Below, piece by piece: positions 10,926 through 63,160 of a stretch of DNA of 64,000 bases. The stretch is taken from positions 97,823,300-97,887,299 of the forward strand of contig NC_057718.1 of assembly GCF_004010195.1 (NCBI RefSeq), read 5' to 3'. This DNA comes from Chiloscyllium plagiosum. Taxonomy: Eukaryota. The first letter of the stretch is position 1. Each line of letters begins with the position of its first letter. Both the position numbers and the translations under genes were made by a program. A model generated the notes under the pieces. The model was given only the letters and a program-made list of their open reading frames with translations, was not told the DNA's origin and searched no databases.

Positions 10926-11487
10926 TGACGTCCATGCTTACGGCCAAAGTAGTGCAGAAGGATGACATTGCCTTCAATGGGATAGACCAACAACCGCCTT
11001 GCTTTATCACTTGATGTTTGGACTTATAGATTGATAGTAAACCTGCTGGTCATGTGATGAATGCACCTTGAAGGCCAATGGGTTCTGGTGTGGGGCTTGA
11101 ACCCAGAGCAGCTGTCTCAGAGGTGGAGACGCTACTCATTACAAATCAAGGCCCATGTATTCTACAGATTTTATCAAATGAACGTAAATATGTCATGGCC
11201 TTTCATTTACTTAGGAAATGGAAATATGAGCTCACATTTACAAACAAAATATACTTCAGAATGTTGGAACTCTTCATGAAGTGAGGATTGCCTATAATTA
11301 GCGCAAAATATACAGAAGCAGATGCTGGAAATCTGAAAATAAGTTAGAATATTCTGGTCTAGCAGGATCTGTGGAGAGGGAGAAACAGATAATGTTTCAG
11401 CTTGTGACGTTTCATCAGAACTGGGCAACCTTAGAGATAAACTATCTTCCAAAGAAGTGAAATATTCACGAGGTGACAGAAAAGGGG

Positions 11488-13071: not shown

Positions 13072-13572
13072 GTCGAGAGTGTGGTGCTGGAAAAGCACAG
13101 CAGGTCAGGCAGCATCCGAGGTGCAGGAGAATCGATGTTTCGGGCAGGAGCCCTTCATCAGGAATGAGGTTTGTGAGTCGGGGCTGAGAGATAAGTGGGA
13201 GGGTGGGGTGGGGTTGGGGGGAGGTAGCTGGGAAAGCGATAGGTGAATGATGGTGAGGGAGGTAGGTCAGAGGGGCCAGTGATGGACGGGTCCGGAGGGT
13301 GGTGCCAAGTTGGAGGCTTGGGAACTGGGATAATGTGGGGGGAGGGGAAATGAGGAAGCTGATGAAATCCACATTGATCCCGTGTGGTTGCAGGGTCCCA
13401 AGGCGGAATATGAGGCATTCTTCCTCCAGGCGTCGGGTGATCATGGTTTGGCGATGGAGGAGGCCCAGGACCTGCATGTCCTTGACAGAGTGGGAGGGGG
13501 AGTTGAAGTGTTAAGCCATGGCGGGGTGGGGTTGGTGGGTGCGAGTGTCCCAGAGATATTCTCTGAAACATG
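13072..13572 (-). mobile_element. 5'-truncated Penelope-like element family 1: GIY-YIG endonuclease C-terminus plus pLTR
   Basis: Minus frame FREYLWDTRTHQPHPAMA*HFNSPSHSVKDMQVLGLLHRQTMITRRLEEECLIFRLGTLQPHGINVDF; hammerhead motif at ~13128-13165; TSD AGTGAACAGT at 13062-13071 and 13575-13584. Confidence 0.88.
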
Positions 13573-18089: not shown

Positions 18090-19925
18090 AAAGAAATAGG
18101 CATTGGAGTAGGCCATTTGGCCCCTTGACCTGCTCCACCAATCCATAGGACCATGGCTGATCCAACCACATTCCTTGCGTCCATTTTCTTGGTGTTGAGG
18201 AAGCAGGAAGGCTGCAGAAAAAACTTAGGGAGAGCGGGCAAAGACACGGCATATCTAATGCAACGTGGGAACGTGTGAGGTTATGCATTTTGGTGGAAAG
18301 AGTAGAGGCATAGAAATGGGGGAAATCTTCAGAAATCTGAAGCGCAAAAGGATTTGTGGTCCTAGTTCAGATTTCTATGAAGGTTAACCTGCAGGTTGAA
18401 TTGGCAGTTAAGAAGGCAAATGCAGTGTTCGCATTCAAGAGGGTTAGAATAAAAGACAAGAGATATACTGCTGAAGTTGGTTAAGGCTCTAGTTAGATTG
18501 TATGAGGAATACAATGATGAGTTTTGGGCCCTGTATCTAAGGAAGGATGTGCTGGCATTGGAGGGGTCCAGAGGAGGTTTACAAGAATGACCCGGGGATG
18601 AAGGGCTTGTCCTGTGAGGAACGGTTGAGGACTCTGGGTCTGTACTCGATGAATTTTAGAAGGATGAAGGGGGGAGTCTGTTTGAAACTTACAGAATACC
18701 GAGAGGCCTGGATAGAGTGGACGTGGAGAAGGTGTTTCCACCAGTAGGAGAGACTCGGACCTGTGGGCCCAGCCTCAGAGTGAAGGGATGACCTTTTAGA
18801 ACTGAGGAATGTCTTCAGCCGTTTCTTCCACCAATCTGTGAAACTCATTGACTTTCTAGGCTATGGAGGCCAAGCCATTGAATGTCTTTAAGGCTAGGAT
18901 AGGTTATTGATTATTGAGAAGGTCAAAGGTTATGGGGACAAGGCAAGAGAATGGGGATGAGAAACATATCAGCCATGATGGAATGGCAGAGCAGACTCAT
19001 TGGTCTAATTCTGCTCCTATTTCTTCCCCGTAACCCTTGATTTCCCGATCGATCAAGAATCGATCAACCTCTGATTTAAGTATACCCAAAGACTCTGTCT
19101 CCATAGCTCTGTGTGTCATAAGGAGTTTGAAAGACTCGCAACCTTTTGAGAGAATAAATTCCTCCTCACCTCAGTCTGAAATTAATGTCCCTTTGTTCTG
19201 AGACTTAAGGCTTCTGGTCCAAAGTTAAAAAATCTCACAACACCAGGTTATAGTCCAACAGGTCCAGGACTCTTCGATAAGGCAGGGAGCCTAACTTGCT
19301 GTGCTTTTCCACCACCACTCTAATCTAGACTCGGGTTTCCAGCATCTGCAATCCTCGTTTTTACCACGCAGATGTAAGGGGGAAACATCATCTCAGCATT
19401 TACCTTGTCAAGCCCCTTCAGAATCCTCTACCTTACAATGGGATCACCTTTCATTCTTCGAAATTGCAATGAGTAGGCTCCCAGCTTGGTTAACATTTGC
19501 TCCAAAGACAATTCCTGCATGCCATGGACCATCTCACTGAACTTTCTCCAGAACTGCCTCCAGTGAAAGATTATTTTCAGATTGATGCCTGGAATGAACG
19601 GCAAGTCTTTGGAGGATAAGTTGGATAGGCCGGGCTTCTTCCCACTGCAGTTTAGAAAAGTGAGAGGTGACCCGATGGAAGTGTAAATGCTCCTGAAATG
19701 CCTCCATAAGGTGGACGTGGAGTGTTAGTGGGTTGGGAAATCTCTGCCTCAGAAAATGGGATCATTGAATATTGTAAAAACAAAGATCGATTTGTGTTTG
19801 GGGGGGGCTGGGGGGGGGGCGCGGAGGTGGAGGCGTGGAAATGTGGCATTCAAAGCCCAAACAGATCCGCTGTGTTTTTCTAGAATGGTGAATCAAACAT
19901 GATGGGCTGAATGGTCTACATCTGC
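18090..19925. mobile_element. Cluster of CR1-type LINE fragments in both orientations
   Basis: Plus copy ~18250-19020 (PGMKGLSCEERLRTLGLYSM) inside a minus copy (18090-18170, 19020-19560); another plus copy ~19585-19925. Confidence 0.75.
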
Positions 19926-20091
19926 GTGGTAAAAACGTGGATTGCAGATGCTGGAAACCCGAGTCTAGATTAGAGTGGTGGTGGAAAAGCACAGCAAGTC
20001 AGGCTCCCTGCCTCTATTCCTGATGAAGGGCTTTTGCTCGAAACGTCAATTTTCCTGCTCCTTGGATGCTGCCTGACCTGCTGTGCTTTTC
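19926..20091. mobile_element. PLE family-1 fold-back cassette
   Basis: Inverted arms; TSD CATCTGC; hammerhead motif at 20016-20051. Confidence 0.82.
20016..20051 (+). ncRNA. Minimal type I hammerhead ribozyme motif (PLE family 1)
   Basis: ATTC CTGATGA A GGGC TTTT GCTC GAAA CGTC AATT: core complete, helix II with one G-U pair, palindromic ACGU helix III, GUC site; helix I weak; activity untested. Confidence 0.6.
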
Positions 20092-26444: not shown

Positions 26445-26860
26445 GCTGGTGTCATGGTAATGTCATTGACCCCTGATCTGTGTAGAGGTGTACCATGACC
26501 GTTTGGGGTCTCAGGGCCTACAGCATAGTACACCAAACCAAATGGCAGAATTTATATTGTATTGACTTAATAGACTGGAGTTAACACCAAGTTTCAGTAA
26601 TACTGACCATGAAGCTGTCATGAACCGGTTCTGAAGAAGGTTCGTTGGACCCAAAATGTTAACTCTCCACAGATGTTGCCAGAACTGCTGAGCTTTTGCA
26701 GCAAGTTCTGTCTGTGTTTTGGATTTCCAGCGTCCATAGTTCTTCGTGTTTTGTTTTAAAAATCCATCTGATTCACTTTACAGGAAAATTTGCCACCCTT
26801 ACTTGTATTGCCTGGCTGAAATGTAACTCTAGATCCACAGCAATGTGCTTGAGTGTGGGT
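26445..26860 (+). mobile_element. SINE family C interrupted by PLE family-3 pLTR (26625-26760)
   Basis: TGGTGTCATGGTAATGTCATTG head; insert TTCTGAAGAAGGTTCGTTGGACCCAAAATGTTAACTCT is a decayed hammerhead. Confidence 0.6.
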
Positions 26861-30429: not shown

Positions 30430-33072
30430 AGCAGTATGTCATGGAGTTGACCAGGGAGCAAGCTATCTTGGATCTAATAATGGGTAATGAGGCAGGTTTC
30501 ATGAATGACCTCTGATTAAAAGATCCTTGAGGAAGTAGTGATCATAACATGATACAATTTAATATTCAGTTTGAGAGTGAAAAACTTGGGTCAGAAGCAA
30601 CTGTGTTTAACTTAAATAAAGAGAATTAAAATGAAATAAGGAGAGAGTTAGCTGAGCTAAATTGGGAAGATAGATTAGGAAGAATGACTGAGAATAAGCA
30701 GTAGTGACAGATATTTAAGGAGGTGAATTATGACTGTCAGCAAACGCATTCCAATAAGAGGAAAGATTCTAAGATAGAGATAAACCAACCATGGCTAACT
30801 GTATAAATTAAGGAGAGTATTAATTTGAAATAAAAAGCACATAGGAGACCAAAATGACAGCCTCAAAGACTGGGAAAAATTCTGAACCCAGCAAAGGAAA
30901 ACTCAAAAGAAAATAAAGACAGAAAAAAAACTGAGGGCAATCTAGAGAGGGATTATAAAGACTGACAATAAGAGCTTCTTTAAACATATCAAAAGGAGGA
31001 GAATGGTCAAAGAAACATCGACCTCTTAGAAAATGAATCTGAGGGGATAGTTTTGGGAAACCAAGGAAATGGCAGTGGAATTAAACAGATATTTTGCATC
31101 AGTCTTTACGGTAGAAGCACTCCATTAATATTAAAGAATAAAGGGGAGGAATTAAGTACCATCACCATCACGAGAGAGGTAGTTTTAGACAAACTAATGA
31201 GATGAAAGGCAGATTAGGTTAGTTTCCCTACAGTGTGGAAACAGGCCCTTCGGCCCAACAAGTCCACACCTACCCTCCGAAGAGTAACCCACCCAGACCC
31301 ATTTCCCTCTGATTAATGCACCTAACACTATGGGCAATGTAGCATGGCCAATTCACCTGACCTACGCATTTTGGACTGTGGGAGGAAACCCATGCAGACA
31401 TGGGGAGAATGTGCAAACTCCTTACAGACAGTAAGGAATTAAACCTGGGACCCTAGTGCTGTGAGGCAGCAGTGCTAACCACTGAGCCACCATGTTGCCC
31501 CTTTTCTTTCGCTGTGCCAATAGATCCCCTGGCCCTGATGGTTTTCATTCTAAGATCTCAGCGACAGAGACAAGGGATGCATTGATTCTGGAGTGGTTCC
31601 AGAGAATTGAAAATCTGCTAATGCGACATTCTGTTCAAAAAGGGACAGAGGCAAAGAGTGAGTAAATATAGCCCAATTAACGAACATTTATTGTTGGAAA
31701 GGTATTGGAATCAATCATTAAGTAATTAATAATTAATGAAGTAATAGCAGCACATTTGGAAAATCATAATCTCATCAAGCAGAGTCAGCATGGCTTGATG
31801 AAAGGAAAATTGTGTCTGACTAATTTCTTAGAGTTTTCTGAGGAACTCTCAACCAGAGTGGATAGGAGGGAGGCAGTCGATGTGTTGTCTTTGGATGTCC
31901 AGAAGGCATTCGGCAAGGTAGCTCACAAAAGTCATAAGATTGGAGGTAGGATATTAATGACAAAATAACTGCAGATGCTGGAATCCAAAGAAGACACACA
32001 GAAGGCTGAAAGAACACAGCAAGCCAGGCAATATCAGGAAGAAGGGTTATACTCAGAGGGAGGATACTGGCATGTTTAGAGAATTAGTTAACGGGCAGGA
32101 TTCAGCAAGTGGGGAGAAGGGGCTCAGGTGGTGACCTGTGACCAGTGAGGTTCCAAAGGCAACTGTTTGCAATAAATATTAATGACTTGGAGGAAGGAAG
32201 TGAATGTACTGCAGCCAAATTTGCAGACAACATCAAATAGATGGAAAGGCATGTTGTGAGAGGGATACAGTTTACAGAGATATTAGTAGGTTAAGTAAGT
32301 GGGCAAGATGTCGGCAGATGGAGTATATTGTGGGGAAAATGCAAATTTTGGAAGCAGACGTGGAGAACGGCATTATTTAAATGGAGTAAAGTTGCAGAAA
32401 ACTGCAACATGAAGGGACTTGGAGGTATTTGTGCATAAAACAAAGCAAGCACACAGGTATAGCAGGTAATCAGGAAGGCTAATGGAATGTTAGCCTTTAT
32501 TTCAATGACTTAGGAGTGTAGGAATAGGAAAGTCTGACTACAACTGTACAAAGTGACGGTGAGACCACATGTGGAGCACTGTGAGCAGTTTTGGTCCCCT
32601 CATTCAAGGAAATGTATCATTTCATTGGAGGCAGTTTAGGGAAGGTTCATTAAGATGGTCCCAAGTATGGACAATGGTTTTATGTGCAGATGTTAAACAG
32701 TTTGAGAAAAATGAGAGGAGATCTTATTGAAACATACTGAGTTCTTCAGGAACTTGACAGGGTAAATGCCGAAAAGATATTTCACCTCACAGCAGAGTCT
32801 GGGATCAGTGGGCATAGTCTCAGACTAAAGGGGAGTCAGTTCAAGACTGAGATGAGGAGGAATTTCTTCTCTGAGGGTTAAGAGTCATTGGAACTCCTTG
32901 CCACAGAGAGCTCTGGGGGCCAGAGTCCTTGCGTATATTTAAGGCTGAAAGAGAGAGATTCTTGATCAGCTGGGGAATCAAGGGTTACAGGGAAAGGGCT
33001 GGATCAGCCATGATCCTGTTGAATGGTGGGGCAGGGTCAAGGGGCTGAATGGCCTACTCCTGTTCTGTTTTG
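30430..33072 (+). mobile_element. Long decayed CR1 ORF2 remnant (endonuclease C-terminus to RT to tail)
   Basis: TREQAILDLIMGN..GSSDHN, SPGPDGFH, HLENHNLIKQSQHGLMKGKLCLTNFLEFSEE..D.QKAF.KV, INDLEEG..AKFAD, LYKVTVRPHVEHCEQFWSP; many stops and frameshifts. Confidence 0.92.
31212..31500 (-). mobile_element. HE1-type SINE nested in CR1
   Basis: Matches HE1 consensus seen elsewhere in the window. Confidence 0.9.
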
Positions 33073-34744: not shown

Positions 34745-35708
34745 TGTTAGGGACTAAACTAGCATTCCCCAAATTATATTATGGAGACCCCGACTCTTAT
34801 TGTATATTAGAGGTAAATGTTCCAGATATGATTTGATTGGTCCATCTCTAAACATCAATCAAAACACACTTTATTCTTACAGTGCAATTAAAATGTAACG
34901 AAATGAAGGGTTGGTATAACTTTACACCATTGTCATACTCAACAAGACAATGCATTATCTAACCACGACTCATAAACTGTTCCAATAGTGGCAGCATCCC
35001 ATAAACACACCCTTTGGTAAAAATACAAGGCAGCAAATTAGTTATTATTCTCACACGCTGTCTGTCTTCAGTCCAGTAGAACAAGATACTGAAGGAAACA
35101 ATCTGTCCCTTTTGACTTCTAAGAGGAAACCTCTGTGTCTACATGTTTGATCTCACAGCAGAGAGAGCTCCAGTAGCGAGCTAACAAAAAATAACAATTG
35201 AAAGCAAAACTAAAGTCCCCAGGGTGTGTGAGAGCTCTGACCGTGCCCACTCATGATTCCTTTGTCTTACTATTAAAACCAAAACCACCCAGGGAGAAAC
35301 CCAAAGCCATTTACAAAGTGCCTGCTGGGACAAGACACCTCAACACCATTGTGGCAAAACCCTGCTGCAAGAGAAACAGGAGAGAACTCATCGCTTAAAG
35401 TTAAAAATCACACAGCACCAGGTTATAGTCCAACAGGTTTAATTGGAAGTGCTAGCTTTCGGAGCGTCGCTCCTCCATCAGGTGGTTGCATGAGTTGATC
35501 AAGTATGGCACTGGAAAAGGCACAACAGGTCAGGCAGCATCCAAGGAGCAAGAATCCACAACCACCTGATGAAGGGGCAGCGCTTCGAAAGCTAGCGCTT
35601 CCAATTAAACCTATTGGACTATAACATGATGTTGTGTGATTTTTAACTTTGTACACCCCAGTCCAACACCAGCACCTCCAAATCACATCTCTTAAAAGCA
35701 GAGTAACA
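34745..35708 (-). mobile_element. Possible solo LTR interrupted by a PLE cassette
   Basis: Terminal TGTTA...TAACA, AATAAA on the minus strand at ~34870; no clear TSD. Confidence 0.4.
35397..35685. mobile_element. PLE family-2 fold-back cassette with captured family-1 loop
   Basis: Inverted arms with hammerhead motifs; TSD-like CATC(G/T)CTTAAA on both sides. Confidence 0.85.
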
Positions 35709-39049: not shown

Positions 39050-40350
39050 GAGCTGCAATTGCAAAATTTCAGTCCTCTAGCTGTGGCCTATTGCAGAGGA
39101 ACCTCAATAATCTGAACATTGATTATCCGAACCTTGGATTATCCAAACAAGATTGCGAGGTTCCGATGCTTGGCTAAACTGTGTTATCGGCATTCAATTA
39201 TCTGAACAAAATATGTATTGGAGAGGTTCCTCTGTACATTGTCAATACCTGACTGTGAGTCTGAAGTCGCATGGAGGATACACTGGATATGGATGGCAGA
39301 TTTTCTTCCCTAAAGGGATGAACCAGATGATCGACATTAGCTTTATGATCAGCATTACTGACGTTAGCCTTCAGTTATGGTTTTCTTTTATGAACTGAAT
39401 TCACATTCCACCAGTTGGCATGCTGGGATTTGAACCACTGTCAACAGTGCATTAGCCTGTCTTTCTGTATTGATGGTGGAAGTCAAGTAAGGACCTAGTC
39501 TGTAGGGTTGTTGTTACTCGCGCTCCCATACTGTACAGTAACTCGGGGCAGCATGGTGGCTCAGTGGTCAGCCCTGCTGCCTCGCAGCTTCAGGGACCTG
39601 CGTTCAATTTCAGCCTTGGGTGACTGTCTGTGTGTGGAGCCTGCACATTCTACCTGTGGCAGATGTGGGTACTGCAGATGCTGGAGATTGAGTCAGAATG
39701 AGCTGCAATTGCAAAATTTCAGTCCTCTAGCTGTGGCCTATTGCAGAGGAACCTCAATAATCTGAACATTGATTATCCGAACCTTGGATTATCCAAACAA
39801 GATTGCGAGGTTCCGATGCTTGGCTAAACTGTGTTATCGGCATTCAATTATCTGAACAAAATATGTATTGGAGAGGTTCCTCTGTACATTGTCAATACCT
39901 GACTGTGAGTCTGAAGTCGCATGGAGGATACACTGGATATGGATGGCAGATTTTCTTCCCTAAAGGGATGAACCAGATGATCGACATTAGCTTTATGATC
40001 AGCATTACTGACGTTAGCCTTCAGTTATGGTTTTCTTTTATGAACTGAATTCACATTCCACCAGTTGGCATGCTGGGATTTGAACCACTGTCAACAGTGC
40101 ATTAGCCTGTCTTTCTGTATTGATGGTGGAAGTAAAGTAAGGACCTAGTCTGTAGGGTTGTTGTTACCCGCGCTCCCATACTGTACAGTAACTCGGGGCA
40201 GCATGGTGGCTCAGTGGTCAGCCCTGCTGCCTCACAGCTTCAGGGACCTGCGTTCAATTTCAGCCTTGGGTGACTGTCTGTGTGTGGAGCCTGCACATTC
40301 TACCTGTGGCAGATGTGGGTACTGCAGATGCTGGAGATTAGAGTCAGAAT
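39050..40350. repeat. 650-bp direct tandem duplication
   Basis: 39050-39699 equals 39700-40350 except three substitutions and a 1-bp indel that I could see. Confidence 0.95.
39094..39234. mobile_element. Tigger-like MITE (duplicate at 39744-39884)
   Basis: TIRs CAGAGGAACCTC / GAGGTTCCTCTG|TA; internal ATTATCCGAAC repeats. Confidence 0.75.
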
Positions 40351-41744: not shown

Positions 41745-43230
41745 AAATGGATGGAGTGTTGGTTAAGGGTCAGGAAGCAAGGGATAGCCATAAATGGGAC
41801 ATTTTTAAGTTGGCAAGCTATGACAAGTGGACTGTGTGACAAGGATCAAAATGAGGCCCCAGCTATTTGCAGTCTATTTGAGTGACATTGGCAGAGAACC
41901 TGAGAGTAATGTATCCACGTGTGCTGACAGTACAAAGCTAGGTGGGAATATAAGCTGTGAGGGCACAAAAGCTGCCAGGGCTAAAACCATATTTATTCAA
42001 TGGGCAGATGGTGATGGAGAAATGCGAGACTATTCATTTTGGCAGTAGGAATTGAAAAGCAGAATGTTTTATAAAAGGCCAATGAACTTGGCACTATCAA
42101 AAGAATGTGTGTCAGCTGCTGCAATGGCACACTGGTCATGTCGTTGGACAACAATTGACAGTGATTGCATGGTCACCTGTAGACACTCTTTTAATCCTCG
42201 ATTTTATTTTTACTTAATTAAAAGTGCACCATCTGCCATGATTTGAAGGAGCCGGTGTTGGACGGGAGTGTACAAAGTTAAAAATCACACAACATCAGGT
42301 TACAGTCCAACAGGTTTATTTGGAAGCACTAGCTTTCAGAGCACTGCTCCTTCATCAGGTGGTTGTGGAGCTTCCAGATAAACCTGTTGGACTATAACCT
42401 GGCATTGTGCGATTTTCACCCATCTGCCATGGTGGGATCTGAACACACATTCCAAGAGCATTTGCATGTGGTTCTAGGATTACTCATCCAGTAGCATTAC
42501 CACTACACCACTAAGTGTTGATGCCCAGAAGAGCGTGGGTGTGTTTACACAAGTAAACACTTGTAAACCGTAACCAGTTGAAGAAGGCACATGGCATGTT
42601 GACTATTGTTTTGCAATGCACTTAGACTGCAGAAATAAGCAGGTCTTGCTACGGTTATAAATATGTTTGATGAGCCCATGTCTGGAATGCTTGTATCTTG
42701 AGTTTTGCTCCTCACGTCTAAGGAAGGATGGACACACTGCTAGAGATGTTTACGAGATTGGTCCCTGAGATGAGAAGGTAGTCTGTGATGAAAACTGAGC
42801 CCATACTCTCTGGGTTTTAGAAGAGGTGACCTCACTGAAACATATTGAAACGGCTTGAAGAACGCTAAGCGAGGATGTTAAGATTCTGCAAACAGATGTA
42901 CGACCTCCTCCACCACCTGAGCTACAAATCTTTTCAAAACCTCTGATGTTTGCTCTGGCATGGGAATCAAGAACCTGGGAACCCAGTCTCCGGGTAAAGG
43001 GGCTGACTGTTTAGGACAGGGATGAGAAATCTCCAAGACTGTCAAAGACTTTACTCAGAGTTGTGGGTGCGCTAGCACTGAGTATCTATACGGCTGAGAA
43101 CAACAGATCTTTGGCTCCTCATGGAATCAGGGAATTGGAGAGTGGTTCGGAAAGTGGAGCCAGGACCATAGATTGTACTGAATGGGGCAGCAGGCTGCGG
43201 GGTCTTTTCCTACCCCCTTTTCTTAAATGC
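41745..43230 (+). mobile_element. Highly decayed CR1 RT region with nested SINE C and PLE
   Basis: PQLFAVYLSDI...SNVSTCADSTKLGG (RT FADDTKL region); CR1 3' tail at ~43060-43230. Confidence 0.7.
42240..42417. mobile_element. PLE family-2 fold-back cassette
   Basis: Long minus arm, short plus arm; TSD CCATCTGCCATG at 42229-42240 and 42420-42431. Confidence 0.85.
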
Positions 43231-44185: not shown

Positions 44186-44917
44186 ACTGCGCACTAATCG
44201 CCAGATAAGAACGTTCCTTTCCAATCGGGGAACGCATCAGCAGTTAAGGGGCTTCAGCCTCGGATCTTCGGGTAAGCACCTTACAAGGCGGCCTTCAAGA
44301 TACATAACCACGCAGGATCGCTGAGCAGAAACTGATAGCCACGTTCCGTACCCATGAAGATGGCCTCAACCATGATCTTGGGTTCATGTCGCTCTCCATG
44401 TGACCCGACCACACTTCTGTATCTGTAAACTCTTCCTCCCTGTCCTGGTTTGACACCATCACCTTGATAACTTGTTATGATCTCTCTACCTTAATTAGTT
44501 TGTGCAGTTTTAGATTACTTGTTACTTTGGTTTGACCCTTGGCATGTAACTCTTATACCAATCATGTGATTCCAGCCTCCTTGCCTCCAGCACCACCTTA
44601 TTTTTAATTTTTTGTATTTGCTCTCTGCCTCATTTAATCGGATTATAGGTCATCCCTTCTCTTGCTATTCACCTGTGACACTTCACTCACACCATTGGAC
44701 ACTTTCAGTCACCTGCAGAGACTTATTATTCAGCCTGTAGGCACTCCACTGACACCATTTAATCTTTTTGCTCTCTCTGCCCATTGATCTCTCTGCGTCT
44801 AACTGATATATCTGTGTGTTTCTCTTTACTCCAGCAGATGAAGGAACAGTGCTCCGAAAGCTTATGATTTGAAATAAACCTGTTGGATTATAACCTGGTG
44901 TCATGTGACTTCTGACC
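44186..44917 (+). mobile_element. 5'-truncated Penelope-like element family 2: GIY-YIG C-terminus, 3' region and pLTR
   Basis: Frame 44191-44403 SFPIGERISS*GASASDLRVSTLQGGLQDT*PRRIAEQKLIATFRTHEDGLNHDLGFM; ends CAGATGAAGGAACAGTGCTCCGAAAGCTT...AATAAACCTGTTGG; TSD ATGAATAAA at 44173-44181 and 44918-44926. Confidence 0.85.
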
Positions 44918-45900: not shown

Positions 45901-48900
45901 CTTTACATTGTTTAACTTTGTCCTGAACATTTGGCGGTTTAATCAATATGCTCAACATTATTAATCACTGTTTGCTTAATGCTGCTGCGTTGAGCTTGTG
46001 GGTTTGTGCACAAGTTAAAATCCCTTACGACCGGTCAGAATAATTGTGAGATGGCTTTATCAACAGGGCTGCAAAATTTAGACTTGCACCAAGTCGTGAA
46101 AGGCTTTTGCAGAGGATTGTCAAAAGTCATTGGGTTGTGAGTTGCAAATAAAGAATAATTAAACTTGTAAGTGGTTTGTACATTGGCTGTAAATGAGATA
46201 ATTGAGGAATAGGCAATAAATGATGGCCCAGCCAGTGACGCCCACATCCCACAAGTGAATAAAAAAGTTGTATTGAAGTGCAGCTATCGTTGTACAGGGA
46301 TATCGTTAATCAATATACATATTGATTAATGATTGCAAATGGTTTATGTGAAAATGAGCTTTGCTTTCAAGCAAGTCAATGTGGAATTCTTATTGCTTAA
46401 TATGTTTTGATACATTTCCTTTGCGCATTATTACATCAATTGGTTGTATCATTATTTCTTGAGTTAACATATGTTTTCGAGCCGAGCTCACAGCAACCTA
46501 CATTTCTGTGGTGCTCATTAGTCACAGAGAGGAATTAGAATGGTTTACTGGATGGTTGTTAAATGATGAGAGGGGTGTCAGAGAGGAGAATGACAAGTTC
46601 CTTTCAAATGGACATGTCATTCTGACTAAACGGTACCAGCACTGTTCTGTGGAACTGATCAGCAATCTCAACAGGGTTTTATTTTCATTCAATTTTAATT
46701 GCACTTGCTTGGGGAGCTTCTCTCCTCCCCTTAATGTATTCGTTCTTTGACAGGAAGCGTTTGCTTTCATTTCAGAGAGCATGTGGCTGGCTCCAAAGGT
46801 CTGTACATTTGCCTGAAAGCACTAAATGTCACTTTAATTAATAATGCTTCATTTGAACTGCACTGATCTTTCTGTAAATGGCTTCCTCTCATTAGACTTT
46901 AGATTCTTTTTCAGAGGGGAACAGTTTACTTTATATCTGATGCTTCAATAATACTAATTTAATTAATCCTTAGACTGAGGTAAGGGTTCTGAAAATAGAC
47001 TCAAGTCATGACTTTGTTTTACACATTTGTGTCTGTGTCCACATGGACGTCGATTCTGGGTGTGGTTCCATGTTTTGAGTCTGTTATGTAAGGTCTTCAG
47101 GAACCTGGAGTAAGCTGGTGATGATGTCACAGCACTGCTCTTCACTGGGGCATAAATAGCACAGTGTGGGCGGAGCCACGGGAATAAGGAGGGAAACATA
47201 TAGAGAGCCGGATTGAAATCTGAAGTCCATTCATGTGAATATCAGAAACACATACAGAAAGAAGCATATGGAGTTGACTGTCATTAGATGAGAGAGTTTA
47301 TAGAATAGAGTTTTATTTATTTAACAATAAGGTTAGAGCCTGATATACCTCTGAAGGATAACATGTATTCGTATTTAATCTTAATATATAATCAACATTG
47401 TTATAAAGAAGGCTAAGCATAAAGGCATTTCTTTGACCTTGCTTTCCCATCAGTCAGCCCAAACTTGTGAATATGAGCATAAACGCACACAAAAAAGGGC
47501 CACATTAATCTTCAAAAAAAAGCTAAATCCTAAATGGCTTTTTTGCTTGATCACACTTTCTCCATAAATATTAACTTAGAACACAGCTGATTGATCCCAT
47601 GAATGTTTCTTTTCATTCTTAAAGGTGTGACAGTGCTGATTATAAATGGAGTGCGCTTAGTGATCAGTCAAAGCTTGATAAGTAACATAAAATACAGTAC
47701 TAAATTCCGGCCTGACAAATATTTTATCAGTTAATTGATTTCATTACGTCAACTGTTGTTTGTCAATGTCAATGTAGGCCCAGGGTTAAAAGCAAAAGCT
47801 TGAAAATTTAGATGAAGTCACATCTTTTAGTTAGCTATGTGGCTGGTTTGAATTCTTTGAATGGTTTTCATGAATCCTTGGATCTCAGTCAAATAAGTCT
47901 TGTGTATCTTGCCACTATCAGTGCTTCAGTAAAATTTGTTATCAGCTGATTTTAATTCTCTCTACAAAAGCATACTTTTGTAATGATGAAATGTGTTTTT
48001 GAAGACAGTTAGTTTGCAAATGGGCCTGTCTGTTTTCTAGGCCACCGTTTTTCAAGTGAATATTATTCCTACCTGTCAGTGAATTGTCTTGTGCTGTTGT
48101 TTGACTGAGAAGCAGGGTTATGAGTATAGTTTTTGCATTCTGCCAATGGTATTGTTGTTTCAGCTGCAGGAAAGTGCTTGAGAGAGAGGCGTAGGGAGAG
48201 GTGTGCATTAAATCACGTTTGCCTCCCACAGTAGAGAATGCATTGATCGTAATGAGGTCACCTTGGTGGATCTTGTAGAATATGAGTTCCCTGACTGGGG
48301 CTGCTAACCTGGTCCCATCAGGGGAGTCCTGGCTGACACACAAAAACAGGGGGCCCTGCTCACTCTGAGAGCTGGCTCTGAGGAAGTTGGATCAGTGCCA
48401 AAGATTTTCCACATGCAAGTGAAGAATATAATCGCAATTTATTGTCACGTGTGCTTTTACCTGAAATATACAGTGATAGGCTTTACAAATCGTCCCACCA
48501 CAGTGCCTGTAATATTGACAGAAGTCATATATATAATAGTTAAGAAGAGTTAAATTGAGAGAATGTTTGTCACAGCTCCTGGTCTGGGGAAAGCTGATTA
48601 TGGAACGATGGAATAATCTGAAGATGCAGTGCACATGAGACCATCATTCTGGGACAGAACCACACACCGGGAGATGTCCACGCTGCTATTCTCCTCCTTT
48701 TGCCTTTAGAAGGTGAGACATATGCTCGAGACTGAGATCAATAGATTTCTACATCATATTGACATCAAGGGATCTGGGGATAGGATAGTAAAATGGCATT
48801 GAGGTAAATGATTTGCCATGAACTAGAATGGTGGAGCGGTGTCAAGGGGCTGAATGGCCTAAACTGGCTCCTTTGTTCCTGTTGCTCCTCTTTTTTCCTA

Positions 48901-49017
48901 CTTTTCCTATGTTCCCTCCAATCCTTGTATCATTACAGCAGACCAACCAGAAGTAAAACTATAGTTAGCCCTGAGGAAGTATTGCAGATAATTCCCAAAA
49001 ACCTCAACAGAGGTTTG

Positions 49018-49340
49018 GGGAGGCACGGTAGCTCAATGGTCAGCACTGTTTCCCTCCCAGCGCCAGGGACCCGGGTTCACTTCCACCCTTGGGCGACCGT
49101 GTGGAGTTTGCGTAATCTCCCTGTAGGTTTCCTCCCACAGTCCAAAGATGTGCAGGTTCGAGTGAATTGGTCATGCTAAATTGCCCATAGTGTCCAGGGA
49201 TGTGCAGGCTAGGTGGGTTAACAGTGGGAAATGCAGGGTTATAGGGATAAGGTGGGTTGGTGGAACTGGGTGGGATGCTGTTTGGAGGCTGAGTATGGAT
49301 TTGATGGGCCGAATGACCTGCTTGCATAGAGATTCTATTC
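49018..49340 (+). mobile_element. HE1-type SINE
   Basis: Head, body and tail recognisable. Confidence 0.85.
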
Positions 49341-49937
49341 ATGATTATAACTATGTGAGAAAACAGTTTCCTGTTTTAATTTGAAGTGTTTCACTCCGTG
49401 AGAATGTGTTTATGTTCATCCTTTTGGAAGAGTTTACCAATTTTGAATGTAGAACCAGAAAGTATTCCTGGTCACTTGCTGTGTGTGGCAGCTTGCACTT
49501 GGTTTGAGTCTGGGGAGTGTGGGTGACAGTAATAAATACAGAGTTGATGATGTGGTCTCGGATTGCACAAATGATCTGATTTGATATCTTCCATAGGCTT
49601 TAGCTATCTGTTCAATTGTTGAACACTTTCAGGAAGAGATTCGCTACAGCATGTCCCAAACTTGTTTTGGCTGAATTAATACTTCCTGGAACTGTGCTGT
49701 GACGCATGTTAATTATATGTTAATTTGATGGACAGGAGCAGAAGTGTTGTGCAATTTTGGACACCTCACACAAGTAAGGATTTAATGGAAGTCAGAGTAC
49801 TTCAGTGAAGTTTCTCTGAACAGATTCCTGGGATTTGGGGCCATCTTACGAGGGAAGGTGGCCATATTGGATTTGCATCCTTTGGTGTTTTGTGGATTCA
49901 AAGCTGGTTAAAATGTTGAAGATTCTGAGGGGAATTT

Positions 49938-50144
49938 ACACAACACCAGATTATAGTCCAACAGGTTTAATTGGAAGCACTAGCTTTCGGAGCGCTGCTC
50001 CTTCATCAGGTGGTTGTTATTGTACCTGATGAAGGAGCAGCGCTCTGAAAGTTAGTGCTTCCAATTAAACCTGTTGGACTATAACCTGGCGTTCTGTGAT
50101 TTTTAACTTTGTCCACCCCAGTCCAACACAGTCATCTCCAAATC
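49938..50144. mobile_element. PLE family-2 fold-back cassette in a CR1 remnant
   Basis: Inverted arms; TSD CTGA(G/C)GGGAATT. Confidence 0.88.
49978..50012 (-). ncRNA. Minimal type I hammerhead ribozyme motif (PLE family 2), best-preserved copy
   Basis: Minus strand reads CAC CUGAUGA A GGAGC AGC GCUCC GAAA GCUA GUG: helix I CAC/GUG, 5-bp helix II, palindromic AGCU helix III, CUA site. Confidence 0.75.
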
Positions 50145-50730
50145 CTGACGGGAATTGGCAGAGTAAATACTGAGTGTGATGCTCACTCTTGGAGGAGGGT
50201 CTAGAGCTATGAAACGTCATTTAAAAATAGGGCATCTCTGATTTAATGGGGAGAATTGTTTTTCTCTGTGGGTTGAAGTCATGGAATTTTCTTCCCCAGA
50301 GAACAGGGGTATATTTTTATGGCTAAGTTAGGTTCCTGGCAATGGAGTCCGAGGGTATAAGGGAAAAGTGGAGCTGAGACCACCAATCTGATTCCAGCAA
50401 ATACTGGAGCAGGCTTTATAGATTCATAGAATCCCTATAGTGTGGAGCACCCAGAGGAAAGCCTTGCAGATACGGGGAGAATGTGCAAACTCCACACAGA
50501 CAGTCACCCAAGGCTATAATCGAACCCACGTCCCTGGTGCTGTGAGGTAGCAGTGCTAACCACTGAGCCACCATGCTGCCCATATTGTTGAGCAGAAGGA
50601 CCCATTCCTGCTACTACTTCATGTAAGTTTGTTGTCCCTGTGTGTCTGCCCTGACAAAGGGCAAAGTTGCTGCCCTGATATTAATCTTGAGTGAGATTTG
50701 GCGAGGTGAAGTGAACATCCGCCAATGCCG

Positions 50731-50870
50731 TGGGCGGCACAGTGGCACAGTGGTTAGCACTGCTGCCTCACAGCGCCAGAGACCCGGGTTCAATTCCCGC
50801 CTCAGGCGACTGACTGTGTGGAGTTTGCACGTNNNNNNNNNNNNNTAATCTAATCTAATCTAATCTAATC
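50731..50870 (+). mobile_element. Young HE1-type SINE spanning an assembly gap
   Basis: Head GGGCGGCACAGTGGCACAGTGGTTAGC, N-run 50833-50845, (TAATC)5 tail. Confidence 0.85.
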
Positions 50871-51966
50871 TTCTCTGGGTAAACAGCCCAACATCAATAC
50901 CACAAGGCCATCACCTTCCCATCCTGTTCTGAGTAGGCCATGGGGAAAGACTGGAGGGTTTCTCTCTAAAAAAATACTGCAAATCAGTATTATGAAGTTA
51001 CCACTGACACCTAGCTGCTAGTTTAGCCTGGAAGACCGAGCAGAGAAGATGCCAAGGTGACCGACTGCAGGAACCTCGAGTTTTGTTGATCCCCCAGAGT
51101 CTCAAATGACACACCCACTTCTCCATTCCAAACCATCCCCACATACCAAGACAAACTCCTTTGTTTCCCCAGATGCCAGACACTGGCCTCTTGAGCCTCA
51201 ATTCTGCCCCTGACCAACTGTTGACCTGGTCTACACAAACAAGGCCCGGAAGGTGGTGAGAGGGATTGACGTGGCAAAGACCGAGCAGGTAATTTCTCTT
51301 TGTGGGGGGATATCTAGATCCAGGGGCCAGAATTTCAAAACGAGGGCTTTCTCATTTCAGACAGACATAAGGAGGAATTTCTTCTCACTGGGCATCACTG
51401 AGATTTGGATTCTCTTCCACAGAAAGCAAAGTGGGTTTTCACACTGAATACATTTGGAGCTGAGTTAGCATTTAGACTGAGGAAGGAGTAAAGCGTTACA
51501 GAGAGATAGGCAAAAAGATAGTGTTAAATGACAATCAAATCAGCCCTAATCTTATATAATTGTGGAGCAATTATCCCTTATCAATGGAATTCCCTGCCCA
51601 GTGAAGTAGTTAACACTACTTCAGTAAATGCTTTTAAAACTAAGATAGATTTTATTTGAACAATAAAGGAACCAAGGGTTACGGTGAGATTGCAGGTAAA
51701 TTGAGCTGAGGCCACAAAAAGATCAGCCATGATCTTACTGAATGGCAGAGCAGGCTCAAAGGGCCAGATGGCCTACTCATACTCCGAGTTGTTATGCTGT
51801 TATGTTCAAACTCCAGGCATCAAATCATCTGCTCCCTTTACCTTAGATTAATATCACTCAAGATTAATATCAGGGCAGCAACTTTGCCCTTTGTCAGGGC
51901 AGACACACATGGACAACAAACTTACATGAAGTAGTAGCAGGAATGGGTCCTTCTGCTCAACAATAT

Positions 51967-52280
51967 GGGCAGCATGGTGGCTCAGTGGTTAGCACTGCTA
52001 CCTCACAGCACCAGGGACGTGGGTTCAATTATAGCCTTGGGTGACTGTCTGTGTGGAGTTTGCACATTCTCCCCGTATCTGCAAGGCTTTCCTCTGGGTG
52101 CTCCGGTTTCCTCCCACATTCCAAAGATGTGCAGGTCAGGTGAATTGGCCAAGCTAATTTACCCATAGTGTTCATGGATGTGTGGATTAGGTGCATTAGT
52201 CATGGGTAGGTTACTCTTCTGCGGGTCGGTGTCAACTTGTTGGGCCGAAGGGCCTGCTTCCACACTATAGGGATTCTATG
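51967..52280 (+). mobile_element. HE1-type SINE (deleted mirror copy at ~50422-50581, minus)
   Basis: Full head, body and tail. Confidence 0.9.
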
Positions 52281-53162
52281 AATCTATAAAGCCTGCTCCA
52301 GTATTTGCTGGAATCAGATTGGTGGTCTCAGCTCCACTTTTCCCTTATACCCTCGGACTCCATTGCCAGGAACCTAACTTAGCCATAAAAATATACCCCT
52401 GTTCTCTGGGGAAGAAAATTCCATGACTTCAACCCACAGAGAAAAATAATTCTCCCCATTAAATAACTAAATTCTGCCATTTGCCATAGGGATATTTGAA
52501 CCCAGGTCCCCAGAATATGACTAAAGTCTCTGGATTAACAGTTCAACAATGGGCTTGATGCTGTACTGCAGAGAATTCTATTCAAAGAATAATGTTAGAA
52601 CACTTGCTGATTGTTTCATCGTTTTTATTTTTCCTTCCACCAGTTTTGGATGGGAGCTGTGAACCGGGGGAGGGATTGAAGGGAGGGAATGGAGCGATTG
52701 AGTCAAAACGCTTAATGGGGATGGAGCTACTTAGTGCTTCTTGCCTGATCTGAACTCACTGATCGTACCTTGCTTGGAATGTGCAATTTAGTCTTTAAAA
52801 TTGACCCAAGCCTTATTTTGAAATTCCAATTCGTATATTTGCTCATATCTTTTCCCGTGACTGTGAAGACATTTTTGCACCAAACATGGGCACAAATTGT
52901 GAAAAAGGATAAAACCACAGCCATAATATCACAAGGTTTGCTGGACTCTCTGTTAGTAATTTTAGTACGTCAAGCCAGGAGCATTATAAAATAATATTCG
53001 GGTAAAAACTGCACCAAACGCATTTAGTAGAACAGCATTAGACATACACATCAGTTTTCTGAACACAGTGGTCTCATTGTTGATCTGGTTGATTTTGAGG
53101 GGTTTCAAAGATTTATTAACAATTAAAGCCTACGTTTCCTGAAACATGACCACTTTGGTTTC

Positions 53163-53441
53163 AGATTACATTAGATTCCCTACAGTGTGGAAACAGGCCC
53201 TTTGGCCCAACATGTCCACATGACCCTCCGAAGAGCAACCCACCCAGACCCATTCCCTACCTTTACCCCTGACTAATGCACCTAACATTACGGGCAATTT
53301 AGCATGGCCAGTTCACCTGACCTGCACATCTTTGGACTGTGGGAGGAAACCCACGCAGACACTGGGAGAATGTGCAAACTCCACATAGACATTGCCCGAG
53401 ATGGGAATTGAACCCGGGTCCCTGGTGTAACCACTGAGCCA
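53163..53441 (-). mobile_element. HE1-type SINE
   Basis: Tail, body and partly deleted head. Confidence 0.88.
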
Positions 53442-53762
53442 TATTTTCATGGCATCCGGGCATTGTTGGGATTATGAGTTAGAACTGATGTTCATCTTCT
53501 TTTCTGTTCAGTTGGTGGCGTTGTATCCAAAATTAGAAAGTGATAGCTAGCCCACAGGCTTCAGGACAGAATGTGCTTTGCTTTCCCTGAGCTCTCAGTT
53601 GTGGGTACATGGATTCAATTGTTCAGCCGGAATTTGTGTTACTGCAGTTACTTAAAGGCAAATTCCCTCTGCATCCATCACGTTATTAGTCCATCTCCCT
53701 GGAACATAAATTAACCCCAAGCTCTGTTTGTCATACTATGCCTGGAGTTAACCCTTTTTCCA

Positions 53763-53958
53763 GGCAAAAGTGAGGACTGCAGATGCTGGAAATCAGAGTC
53801 TAGATAAGAGTGGTGCTGGAAATGCACAGCAGCTCAGGCAGCATCCGAGGAGCAGGAAAATTGACATTCCAGATGGAAGGGCTTTTGCCCGAAACGTCGA
53901 TTTTCCTGCTCCTCGGATGCTGCCTGACCTGCTGTGCTTTTTCAGCACCACTCTAATC
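53763..53958. mobile_element. PLE family-1 fold-back cassette
   Basis: Inverted arms; imperfect TSD TTAACC(C)TTTTTCCA. Confidence 0.85.
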
Positions 53959-54084
53959 TTAACCTTTTTTTTCCAATCAAGCTATTGTTCCCATGTTGAT
54001 CGTCCATGGTCTCGTCCCACCTCCATTTCTTTAAGCCCAGTGGATGTAGAATGGGACAATTCCTTGCCCTCACGCTGGTTGACA

Positions 54085-54570
54085 TTGTAATTTTGTTTCC
54101 TCATTCTTTCATGGTGTCCCTGGCAACGATCAGCATTTGTGGCCCACCCCTGATTGCCCTGGAACTGAGTGGTTTGCTATGGCCATTTCAGAGGGCAGTT
54201 AAGATTCGGTCATGTTGGTGTGGACCTGGAGTCAATGTCGGCCAGACCAGGTGAGGACAGCAGATTTCCTTTCATGTCAGTGAACCAGGTAGGTTTACTA
54301 CAACAAAAAAAAACAGAAATTACTGGAAAGGCTCACCAGGTGTGGCAGCATCCGTGGTGAGAATGTGTGGAGCTGTGGAAACCTGCTGAGCCTTTACAGC
54401 AACTTCTGTTTTTGTTTCTGATTTCCAGCATTCGCAATTCTTTCAGTTTACTGCGGCAATCGATGAGAATTGTCAGCAATACTCAGGGACGTTCCAGATT
54501 TATGAATTGATTTGGATCCACACCCCCGCAGCGTTGGTCTTGGCCTTCCTGTGACATTACTACAATGACC
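54085..54570 (-). mobile_element. SINE family C interrupted by a PLE family-3 fold-back (54300-54445)
   Basis: CAGCATTTGTGGCCCACCCCTGATTGCCCT...CAGAGGGCAGTTAAGA...GTGACATTACTACAATGACCA. Confidence 0.7.
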
Positions 54571-55436
54571 ACATCTTTCCTTAGATGCACTCTCTGCCTG
54601 CTTCATAAATGCAGTGAACTGTATCCTCACCTAATAAACTCCAGCACCATATCATTGAGAAAGGGTAACCTCTCCTCATCCTCCTTTTACTCCTGATGCC
54701 TTGACCTCCTGCATCTCTGCATGACCTTTGGTACGGCCTTCCATCAGTGCCTGTCCTGTTGGACTGCCCTCACTCGATTCTGTTTATTGGATCACTTCCT
54801 GGTCCCATTTGCTTAGTCGCATGACAAATATCATTTGAAAACAAGGGGCATAGCTGTCACAGTAGGAGTTGGCCAAGTGTGTGGATTACAACAACTGTCA
54901 GGCCAATAGGGATTCACATTTTGGAAAAATTATGTTCTTCCTTTCCTAACTTTCTGCTCATGATTCAGTGGAGATGTGACTGTAGATGGTTGTGGGACAC
55001 CAATGCACATTGAATGAAGCATTTGGAAAATTGTTCTAACGGAATTCAATTCAGTTTGTTGGTTCTGATTGAAGTGGTTAGCACTGACACCTCACCAGAC
55101 CAGGGGCCTGAGTTCAATTCCAGCTTCGGGTGAATGGCTTTGTGGAGTTTGCACATTCTCCCAGTGCCCACGTGGGTTTCATCCCACAGTCCAAAGACTA
55201 ATGGCCGGTCCTTGGGTAGTGTTGCAGACCAGAGGGACCTAGGGTGCTGGTACATCATTCTTTAAAGTTTGCGTCACATATAGACAGGGTGGTTAAGAAG
55301 GCGTTTAGCATACTTGCTTTCATTGCTCAGTCCTTCGAGTATAGGAGTTGGGCCGTCATGTTGATGTTGTACAGGATATTGGTGAGGCCTCTTCTGGAAT
55401 ATCGTGTCCAGTTCTGGTTGCCCAGTTATAGGAATG

Positions 55437-55637
55437 TGCTGCTGGAAAAGCGCAGCAGGTCAGGCAGCATCCAAGGAACAGGAGAATCGACGTTTCGGGC
55501 ATAAGCCCTTCTTCAGGAAGGGCTTATGTCCGAAACGTCGATTCTCCTGTTCCTTGGATGCTGCCTGACCTGCTGCGCTTTTCCAGCAACACATTTTCAG
55601 CTCTGATCTCCAGCATCTGCAGTCCTCACTTTTTCCT
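55437..55637. mobile_element. PLE family-1 fold-back cassette, young
   Basis: ~75-bp near-perfect stem; perfect 15-bp TSD CCAGTTATAGGAATG at 55422-55436 and 55638-55652. Confidence 0.92.
55485..55518 (-). ncRNA. Minimal type I hammerhead ribozyme motif (PLE family 1)
   Basis: Minus strand UUC CUGAAGA A GGGC UUAU GCCC GAAA CGUC GAUU: intact core, 4-bp helix II, ACGU palindrome, GUC site. Confidence 0.7.
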
Positions 55638-57651
55638 CCAGTTATAGGAATGATATTATTAAGCAGGAGAGAGTTCAGAAGAGATTTACCAGGATGTTGC
55701 CAGGTATGGAGTTATAAAGAAAGGCTGGGACTTATTTCACTGGAGTGTAGGAGGTTGACAGGTGACATGATAGAAGTTTATAAAATAGTGAGGGGTATAG
55801 ATAGAGTTGATGGTAATGGTCACTTTCCCAAGATGGGGAATTTCAAGATTAGGGTGCACATTTTTACGATGAGAGGAGAGAGATTTAAAAGAAGACGTAA
55901 GAGGTATGTTTTTTACACAGATGGTGGTTTGTGTGTGGAATGAACTTCCTGAGGAAGTGGTGGATGTGGGTACAGTTACAATATTTAAAAGACATTAAAA
56001 GATGGATACATAAATCGGAAAGATTTGGAGGGATATGAGCCAGGAGCAGGCAGGTGGGACTCTTTAGTCTGGGGTTATGTTCGATGTGGACTGGTTGGAC
56101 CGGAGGGTGTGTTTCCGTGCTGTATGACTCAATGGCTATTTGTGCAGGTGAGGTGGATTGGCCATGCTAAATTGTACACAATGTCCAAGAGTGTGCAGGC
56201 CAGGTGGGTAAACCAGTTAAATGTGGGGTGATGGGGATATGTTGAGGGATGGATCTGAGTGGGATGTTCTTTGGATGGTCGGTACAGACTCGATGAGCCA
56301 AATGGTCTCTGTTGGCATGGTGGGGATTCTGTGAAGTCACGGGAAAAGATATGAGCAAATATACAAATTGGAATCTTCAAAATAAGGCTTGGGTCAGTTA
56401 TAAAGTCTAAATTGCACATTCCAAACAAGGTACGATCAGGCAAATACTGAAGGCAAGGCACACTAAATAGCTCCATCCTCACCAAGAGGTTCAACTCATT
56501 ATCTGTTGATCTGTTTATACTGAGCAATTTTAAGTGGTGAGGTTTGTCAGTGATGGTTTGCTGTTGCCCTGCACTCTCAGGGTCAGCTCCTAAGTTGGCC
56601 TCAGCTGGAACAGGACTCCAGCCGCACTTTCTGCATTAATCTGTCTTACCCAGCTGGCTGAGATGTCCGGGCCCCATTTATACAACAGGCACTTCAGAAT
56701 TGCTTTTCAGTACCGTTCCCTTAACCCGTTTTGACAGTTGTGTCAGCCCTGACATTTCTGGGAGAGAGAGCATCGTGACTGCAGTTGAGAGGTTAGCTCA
56801 GGAATGAATGGCCTTCCGCAGTTCTGTGGTCACATTCCGATCAGCAGGACACCTCTTAATCCAGAGCATGAGGTCTCATAAACTCTAAAACTCGTCAATG
56901 ACACCGGTTAAGAAATCACATCAGCTTTATGGGGCCCAATGCGAAAGGTTAATTAATTAATAAAAATTAATTTCAATCAGATTAACGGCCCAAGTAAAGA
57001 ATGAAAGATTTGACATTTTAACTTTAGTTTCCTGTTTATATACGAAGAAAACTGTAGTACTGGACTTTTTAACTTACTTCCTCATCTCTTCAGTCCTGTA
57101 ACTAAGATTTTGCACCTTGGCACTTTATTCCTAAAATAGGACCGTGTGTGGTGACATTTCACTGTCCACCTGTACCCTGTATGTGTATGTGTGACAATAA
57201 AACTGAAATCTAAACCTAATATTTCATGTGCTGTATGAGCAGAATAAGTGGAGATCATTGGGATTATGACTTATGCACTTGCAAATTTGTCGCCATGGCT
57301 TTATGAGCTTAGACTCTCCATAAGCACCACAGTTTAATAGCACATGGCTAAAATGAATACAGTGATCAGCTGAATGTGAAGCGCAGGTTTCCCTCGGCAG
57401 CTGAATAATCAAAATAAGTTGCAGCTTCATTAGTATGGTTGGCCTGTGGCAGGGACGTAGTTAGATGGGGTGGGAGGAAGCAAACTGGCAAACGGGCAAA
57501 TTGTTTGTTGCTTTTTTGGGGTCACTTATGCTTACTGTGTATAAACGTTAATGGCATCTAATTGACATGAAATTTGAAAACTTATGAACCGTAATTTCCC
57601 AGACCCCAGTGTTTTAAGCTGCTTTACATCACTGTGTAGCTGCTGCTCTCT

Positions 57652-62619: not shown

Positions 62620-63160
62620 TAATTTAGCTGACTGTACTCACCATTCACAACGCGGCTTCCTCTATATTGGAGAGGCCAGACACAGATTGGGTTACTACTT
62701 TACAAAACACATTGACATTTCTGTCCTCAGCTGACTGCACTGTTCCAGTGTGAGCTTCCGGAACAGCTTGGCTTAGACACTTTACAACTTTCTGAACTCA
62801 ACATTGAATTCAATCATTTTACCTGGAAAACACTGCCCCCATTTTTATTTTCTATTCTTCCACCTGCTTTTGACGCATCTTTTGTACCTATTCTGACCCC
62901 AATCTCTGTTCCCCTTTGTCCTCGAGATGTAGTGTTTCTGTTACTCCATCACCCCTGTTGCCCACCCTGTCATAGCCCTCACTTTATCCTTGGCGTGCCT
63001 GCTCATCCTCTTGCTGAAAATCCATTACGTTTCTAATGCTTCCCATTTTAAAAGGAAGGTCACATAGCAGAGACTTTGACTCTGTTTCTGTCCCCACCTA
63101 GCTGCTGCCATAATCCGCTGCTTTTTCAGGTTTCCAGCATCCTCCGTATTCTGCTTTCCT
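62620..63160 (+). mobile_element. Decayed Penelope-like element family 3 (GIY-YIG remnant plus pLTR)
   Basis: FLYIGEARHRLGYYFTKH (YIG motif) at ~62656, TLQLSELNIEFN at ~62778, family-3 type terminus at 63050-63160. Confidence 0.7.

Follow-up and report, generated by a model that had tools for sequence, protein, structure and literature searches.

The locus at 49978-50057 raises the question of why motifs with the fold of a self-cleaving hammerhead RNA lie scattered, in families unrelated in sequence, over one region of a shark genome, what carries them and whether they act there as ribozymes. We addressed it in the window, that is, the whole 64,000-nucleotide stretch of Chiloscyllium plagiosum DNA that was analysed. 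At the locus itself we resolved the following features, pLTR denoting the terminal repeat that is assigned below to Penelope-like elements and TSD a target-site duplication:

49922-49936 (+), left TSD copy of the focal insertion (15 bp, 13/15 match)
49937-50017 (-), short arm without tail, putative 3' end of a family-2 Penelope-like pLTR
49978-50012 (-), intact minimal type I hammerhead of family 2, predicted cut between 49981 and 49980 (after CUA)
50018-50023 (no strand), 6-nt filler at the head-to-head junction
50024-50143 (+), long arm with tail, putative family-2 pLTR end
50024-50057 (+), second hammerhead with intact core and two G-U wobbles, predicted to be cut between 50054 and 50055
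50064-50069 (+), poly(A) signal AUUAAA (AAUAAA in about 41% of DNA depth)
50110-50143 (+), optional tail of about 35 nt, predicted to pair back with 50072-50080
50142-50156 (+), right TSD copy of the focal insertion

Two unrelated repeats carry minimal hammerhead sequences

The minus strand at 49978-50012 reads precisely as the first-pass annotation gave it, with helix I CAC/GUG, CUGAUGA, an extra A, helix II GGAGC/GCUCC closed by the loop AGC, GAAA and GCUA. A strict descriptor of the minimal hammerhead (core CUGAnGA, helix II of at least 4 bp, GAAA, paired 15.2/16.2, UH and helix I of at least 2 bp) found five perfect matches in the window, at 1466 (+), 42358 (-), 50009 (-) and 50026 (+) in family 2 and at 55516 (-) in family 1. 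Seven matches were obtained when one mismatch in helix II was allowed and eleven with one core plus one stem mismatch, while 30 dinucleotide shuffles searched under the same three settings gave 0, 0 and a mean of 0.17 matches; the claim that two sequence-unrelated repeats keep the same hammerhead core thus holds on five strict matches against none in the shuffles. By the descriptor, CUGAnGA, GAAA and UH are present in the five perfect copies, all of which also have the extra unpaired A between positions 9 and 10.1, and the 10.1-11.1 pair is G-C in three of them and G-U in two. The palindromic 15.1-16.1 positions, which lack a helix III loop, read AGCU or ACGU, and AGUU in the 50026 copy.

Between families the stems are exchanged with pairing kept: helix I is CAC/GUG, UC/GA or, in a decayed third family at 26631, GUU/AAC, helix II is GGAGC/GCUCC in one family versus GGGC/GCCC in the other, and the palindrome is AGCU versus ACGU, so that the helix III swap reported earlier is indeed seen between families. 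The variation described for loop II stood in part, UUUU and UUAU occurring in several copies but UUAA and UCCU in one copy each. Likewise, of the individual copies named at first pass, those at 49978-50012, 50026, 1466, 42358 and 55516 are intact and six others are damaged (35566, helix II broken and G1.2 changed; 44835, U4>A; 20020, G1.1>A; 13161, palindrome lost; 2616, one A of GAAA missing; 3985, helix II mismatch). The motif is as abundant as had been supposed, since 35,165 contigs of one DNA run match the 468-bp stretch 50013-50480. Exact-pattern scans gave no match for family 2 in viral and metagenome contigs and none for family 1 in prokaryote genomes. The 10 matches that Rfam 15 returned at E<=5 included no hammerhead; they were miRNA look-alikes of hairpin type, all scoring below gathering. 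Judged by core, stems and shuffled controls, the motifs are confirmed as real minimal type I hammerhead-ribozyme sequences.

Decayed ends of the third Penelope-like family were also noticed at 26627-26735, 11370-11420, 54305-54430 and 3494-3646. In common with family 1 it has a downstream motif and, shortly after the hammerhead, a pyrimidine tract that ends in CAG and resembles a 3' splice site.

The hammerheads lie in putative 3' terminal repeats of Penelope-like elements

The repeat extends 80-130 nt downstream of each motif, and upstream DNA is kept in two copies, 13161 (family 1) and 44835 (family-2-like), whose surroundings are as follows:

13077-13164 (-), putative family-1 pLTR end, solo copy, palindrome damaged
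13331-13567 (-), broken C-terminal GIY-YIG remnant (76% to P0002, a protein with RT and GIY-YIG)
44197-44403 (+), broken C-terminal GIY-YIG remnant of a Penelope-like ORF (71% to P0004)
44831-44912 (+), family-2-like pLTR end with damaged hammerhead (80% to the focal arm)

The first remnant lies about 180 nt upstream of the family-1 hammerhead 13161 and aligns over 63 aa to P0002, which has a YIDD RT motif as well as GIY-YIG; the second lies about 430 nt upstream of the family-2-like hammerhead 44835, and its match P0004 is from Mustelus asterias. Since GIY-YIG remnants stand upstream of both families, both would be 3' ends of EN+ Penelope-like elements, and since the two remnants give no significant pairwise alignment with each other, they point to two distinct families. 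For family 2 the link to the ORF comes through the 44835 copy, which is just 80% identical to the focal arm. The window holds no RT domain or whole element, the RT part having been truncated away here, and the RT motif YIDD is seen only in the homolog P0002. The CX2-5CxxC linker that Neptune elements have between RT and EN is complete in the homolog P0004 (C-X4-C-X2-C), partial in P0002 and P0005 and absent from the fragments in the window. The homologs, which are shark proteins, have Pfam GIY-YIG matches under the curated cut-off (E 0.0046 and 0.15). On these coding remnants we identify families 1 and 2 as the 3' terminal repeats (pLTRs) of endonuclease-bearing Penelope-like elements, in keeping with the Penelope connection drawn in the first-pass annotation. 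The clade is probably Neptune, as judged from the linker motif of one homolog. A weak N-terminal GIY-YIG remnant (62621-62713, E 8e-4 to P0001) was noted about 1 kb upstream of the family-1 copy 63713.

Minimal hammerheads have been described in the pLTRs of metazoan Penelope-like elements (Cervera and De la Pena 2014, PMC4209133), so that the ribozyme class and its Penelope link have been known since 2014 and, as a ribozyme find, the present motifs are ordinary. According to the accessible text of that report, they share with ours the core, the extra base between 9 and 10.1, the G10.1-C11.1 pair, the palindromic 15-16 positions and a short helix I, as well as the occurrence of several sequence families per genome, mostly as dispersed single motifs with some close pairs on opposite strands. 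In the Schistosoma families described there helix II spans 7-8 bp, against 4-5 bp in ours, and the same text names no cartilaginous fish and mentions no poly(A) signal. By sequence, then, the copies show the testable defining features of metazoan Penelope-like minimal hammerheads. In the literature searched, from which subscription journals were mostly absent, we found no paper on shark Penelope-like hammerheads, though the supplements of PMC4209133 and of a 2026 preprint may list some.

Most copies are inverted, 5'-truncated insertions

Most copies, the focal one included, are head-to-head inverted pairs. The focal arms 49933-50011 and 50024-50102 are 91% complementary, and the whole 49978-50057 region belongs to a single insertion in which the 15-bp TSD 49922-49936/50142-50156 encloses the short arm, the 6-nt filler and the long arm with its tail. 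Other insertions in the window are:

1332-1553 (no strand), family-2 head-to-head pair, loop II AGC versus GUC between arms, TSD not found
26627-26667 (+), decayed hammerhead of the third family (helix I GUU/AAC)
35400-35685 (no strand), three-piece insertion of a family-2 arm, a family-1-type piece and a family-2 arm with tail, 11-bp TSD (10/11 match)
42241-42417 (no strand), family-2 pair with 12-bp TSD, hammerhead 42358 (-) in the hairpin loop
55437-55637 (no strand), young family-1 head-to-head pair with perfect 15-bp TSD and intact hammerhead 55516 (-)

Nine of the 11 pairs are flanked directly on both sides by a TSD of 11-16 bp, versus 0.3% of 3000 random pairs, in a test for which the insertion limits were placed by eye after the candidates had been seen, with 4 nt of slack. 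The 3' ends of copies in the DNA run pile up at 50108-50109 and at 50144, about 35 nt apart. Folding predicts for both families that a segment behind the hammerhead pairs with the tail, while whole arms mostly fold no better than shuffles. By their sequence limits, the dispersed copies are short and 5'-truncated. An inverted duplicate of a family-1 variant end plus flank was also seen at 19270-19390 and 19915-20010, about 550 nt apart, each joined to another arm.

Much of this architecture is known from EN+ Neptune/Penelope elements, for which the accessible texts (Craig 2021, PMC8557442; Arkhipova 2013, PMC3846280) describe a C-terminal GIY-YIG, 5' truncation, TSDs, an inverted 5'-truncated head-to-head copy and an optional tail of 30-40 bp; the TSDs are 11-16 bp here versus 8-10 bp in their rotifer examples. 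Long terminal inverted arms with target duplications are also what MITE-like DNA transposons would show, in which case the likeness to a hammerhead would be incidental. The arms are, however, unequal, the junctions and the TSD lengths (11-16 bp) vary, solo arms lead on into a GIY-YIG ORF and unrelated families share the core, and we regard such an origin as extremely unlikely.

No same-strand (head-to-tail) tandem units were found within the window, and the focal arms are not a tandem dimer but inverted, head-to-head. This bears on the further idea that the short repeats are non-LTR retrozyme monomers, amplifying via self-cut circular RNAs. Retrozymes related to pLTRs have been reported in vertebrates, including one chondrichthyan, in the accessible part of a preprint (bioRxiv 10.64898/2026.07.22.740005), but besides lacking tandem units here most copies run through the cut site rather than begin at it and end at two tail positions, and two directly follow an ORF, so that we hold retrozyme amplification to be very unlikely.

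Mixed arms hint at two templates per pair

On the pLTR reading, published work on Poseidon_Ac of Anolis (Frangieh 2024, PMC11167929) and other Penelope-like elements suggests how such insertions may form. The element protein would nick both strands, reverse transcription would start at one of two sites flanking the tail, and uncut RNA would be copied through the hammerhead; copying would usually stop near the hammerhead's 5' edge, where a second, opposite cDNA would be joined. As far as its accessible text goes, Poseidon_Ac shares with our elements two RT start sites bounding the tail, an AC-rich tail with a predicted stem, uncut RNA as template and the absence of RNA-seq ends at the cut site. 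It differs in belonging to another clade, and the elements here are known as fragments, from sequence alone.

Self-priming, as proposed in 2013 (PMC3846280), leads one to expect arms that are identical at insertion. In the 1.4-kb pair, for which no TSD was found, loop II is AGC on one arm and GUC on the other; the two changes that make up the GUC loop are both frequent in DNA, at 10% and 8%, and this loop is also seen in a read consensus. In the TSD-flanked insertion 35400-35685 a family-1-type piece separates two family-2 arms whose loops differ. In two family-1 pairs the arms carry different letters at a site where other copies are polymorphic as well (8 versus 6), while in the 50.0-kb and 55.5-kb pairs the arms agree at such polymorphic sites except for one CpG change. 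Arms of different subfamilies in one insertion favour two templates over self-priming, in line with the extension from both strands by PAc, and though the numbers are small there are hints that pairs are built from two RNA templates. Mixed-subfamily arms can therefore tell self-priming from two-template priming, and a genome with so many copies offers many pairs to count. At 35400-35685 we also observed that pieces of two Penelope families are joined, apparently via short microhomologies, a possible template jump between families.

Dispersed copies are predicted to be masked, and their cores decay like their flanks

The transcript of the focal pair is predicted to form a hairpin of -144.9 kcal/mol (z -17). 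Because the pair is inverted and not tandem, one transcript contains one sense hammerhead together with its antisense, and RNA of inverted pairs such as 49978-50057 would fold into a hairpin of about 80 bp that hides the ribozyme. The predicted probability of helix II falls from 0.99 for the 50009 hammerhead alone to 0.0 in context. The same value of 0.0 results when 50026, 1466 and 55516 are folded within their surroundings; the only hammerheads that stay open are 42358, partly exposed at about 0.7, and 13161, a damaged solo copy. With these two aside, the inverted-pair context abolishes helix II in prediction and the motif is masked. Minimal hammerheads of Penelope-like elements are thought to need a dimer to act (PMC4209133), and the PAc hammerhead needs protein and is dispensable for insertion (PMC11167929), both as stated in the accessible texts. 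The best cofold (-26.9 kcal/mol) is more stable than the dimer as modelled (-17.7), and the dimer activity expected of these genomic copies found no backing in an inverted pair with a predicted helix II probability of 0.0. From these folding models the genomic copies probably do not work as ribozymes; the ribozyme may work weakly, as a dimer or with the help of protein, only in tandem master transcripts.

Conservation was counted in 23 window copies of mixed age, the copies 44835, 34419 and 8640 having been dropped as divergent or misaligned. At 11 core positions 12 of 229 cells were off the majority (5.2%) versus 60 of 991 (6.1%) in the downstream flank (p=0.76), and with CpG sites removed the counts were 9 of 206 versus 46 of 946. 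Contrary to the expectation that the core would be more conserved than its flanks, no such difference appeared among these 23 copies. In one DNA run, genome-wide, G12>A accounts for 10.5% of depth versus 12.0% at non-core CpG. As the core is no better kept than the flank, the conservation across families reflects selection on master elements and not on these copies; it is likely that selection acted on master elements only, although 23 copies are few, so that weak selection on some is possible. We rejected the excess of C11.1>U over G12>A as evidence of selection, because the reference itself carries U there.

Taken together, we consider it very probable that the hammerheads come from at least two Penelope-like families, likely Neptune, in whose 3' terminal repeats they sit, scattered as short 5'-truncated copies that are likely inert and decay neutrally.

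Family-2 ends serve as poly(A) sites

RNA reads and DNA contigs were aligned to 50013-50480 (468 bp) at 85% likeness, the RNA coming from one poly(A) single-cell run of which about 2% was read. Of 2832 aligned RNA reads just 89 were at least 99% alike, so the reads stem from other copies. Behind 50081 and 50084, respectively, 577 and 768 reads continue into poly(A), where the genome has no A-run, and these ends, 27-30 nt beyond the predicted cut, precede both RT start sites. With the RNA strand inferred from poly(A) lying behind on the plus strand, the ratio of sense to antisense depth in this run is about 6:1 over the hammerhead and 1.1:1 beyond 50084. Within 50062-50080 the sole listed variant, T>A, toggles the hexamer 50064-50069 between AUUAAA and AAUAAA; a GU-rich tract follows, and the predicted cut lies 9 nt before this signal. 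Thus, family-2 ends serve as poly(A) sites in RNAs from some copies. The literature searched, which mostly excluded subscription journals, yielded no description of a Penelope-like hammerhead with a poly(A) signal at its side.

The polyadenylated family-2 RNAs contain the motif uncut. Their loose upstream ends (997 and 216 reads) look like 3' UTR of the element itself, and the listed strand-change joint occurs in only 17 RNA reads, which indicates that the source is mostly longer copies and not the short pairs. At the cut site, 50054/50055, a 2-nt GT insertion is found in 458 of 2186 RNA reads (21%), whereas in DNA 32 contigs, or 0.12% of contig depth, carry it. A slippage subfamily at highly expressed loci would explain this most simply.

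These RNAs bear on the reading in which the dispersed copies actively cut host RNA, family 2 acting as a self-cleaving poly(A) switch that strips the tail from transcripts ending in the element. The two poly(A) ends, the strand bias over the motif, the toggling of two canonical hexamers and the enrichment of the GT insertion in RNA would fit it, and there is a precedent in the Clec2 3' UTR hammerhead, which in the accessible text (PMC6765202) is likewise predicted to cut upstream of a poly(A) signal; the Clec2 ribozyme is discontinuous, specific to a single gene and of demonstrated activity, whereas the motif here is minimal, transposon-borne, multi-copy and predicted only. No pile of read starts or ends was seen at the predicted cut, a weak test since poly(A) selection loses the 27-30 nt product. 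Variants with a dead core are not enriched in poly(A) RNA either (G12>A 11.9% versus 10.5% in DNA), the core is not conserved among the 23 copies, the GT variant also exists in DNA and may come from a few highly expressed loci, and all RNA support derives from the one informative run; we therefore judge cleavage of host RNA by such a switch quite unlikely.

Polyadenylation just behind the hammerhead, upstream of the RT start sites, suggests a role of the motif in the choice of 3' end. A broader scheme, which as a whole we think unlikely, would make the family-2 end a mobile cassette of hammerhead and poly(A) signal that has seeded very many alternative 3' ends in a cartilaginous-fish genome, with a tail removable by a protein- or dimer-gated ribozyme 9 nt before the signal; in the element it would divide the RNA between a polyadenylated message and a read-through template, the latter alone holding the RT start sites, and head-to-head pairs would arise from two RNAs primed on the two nicked strands.

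Host context of the window

That some motifs lie inside a probable pre-mRNA, as had been suggested, was not confirmed, and no host gene was found in the window. Pfam searches of 246 non-repeat ORFs of at least 52 aa gave no host domain, although short exons would escape them, and scans of the window for splice signals gave weak candidates only. RNA depth over the focal flank 50157-50428 was 0 in the poly(A) single-cell run, a weak test at about 2% read, and 46500-56000 had no RNA record among the matches listed.

Three further features were noted. The 246 ORFs gave a single Pfam match, to RVT_1 (E 6.7e-5, below cut-off) at 31726-31965; it is an RT fragment that probably derives from an old LINE. 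The segment 16200-17800 is CpG-rich (observed/expected 0.6-0.7), includes a short tandem repeat (about 16430-16640) and may be a promoter. Identical 91-aa frames lie 650 nt apart at 39123-39398 and 39773-40048, reflecting either a recent tandem duplication or an assembly duplicate.
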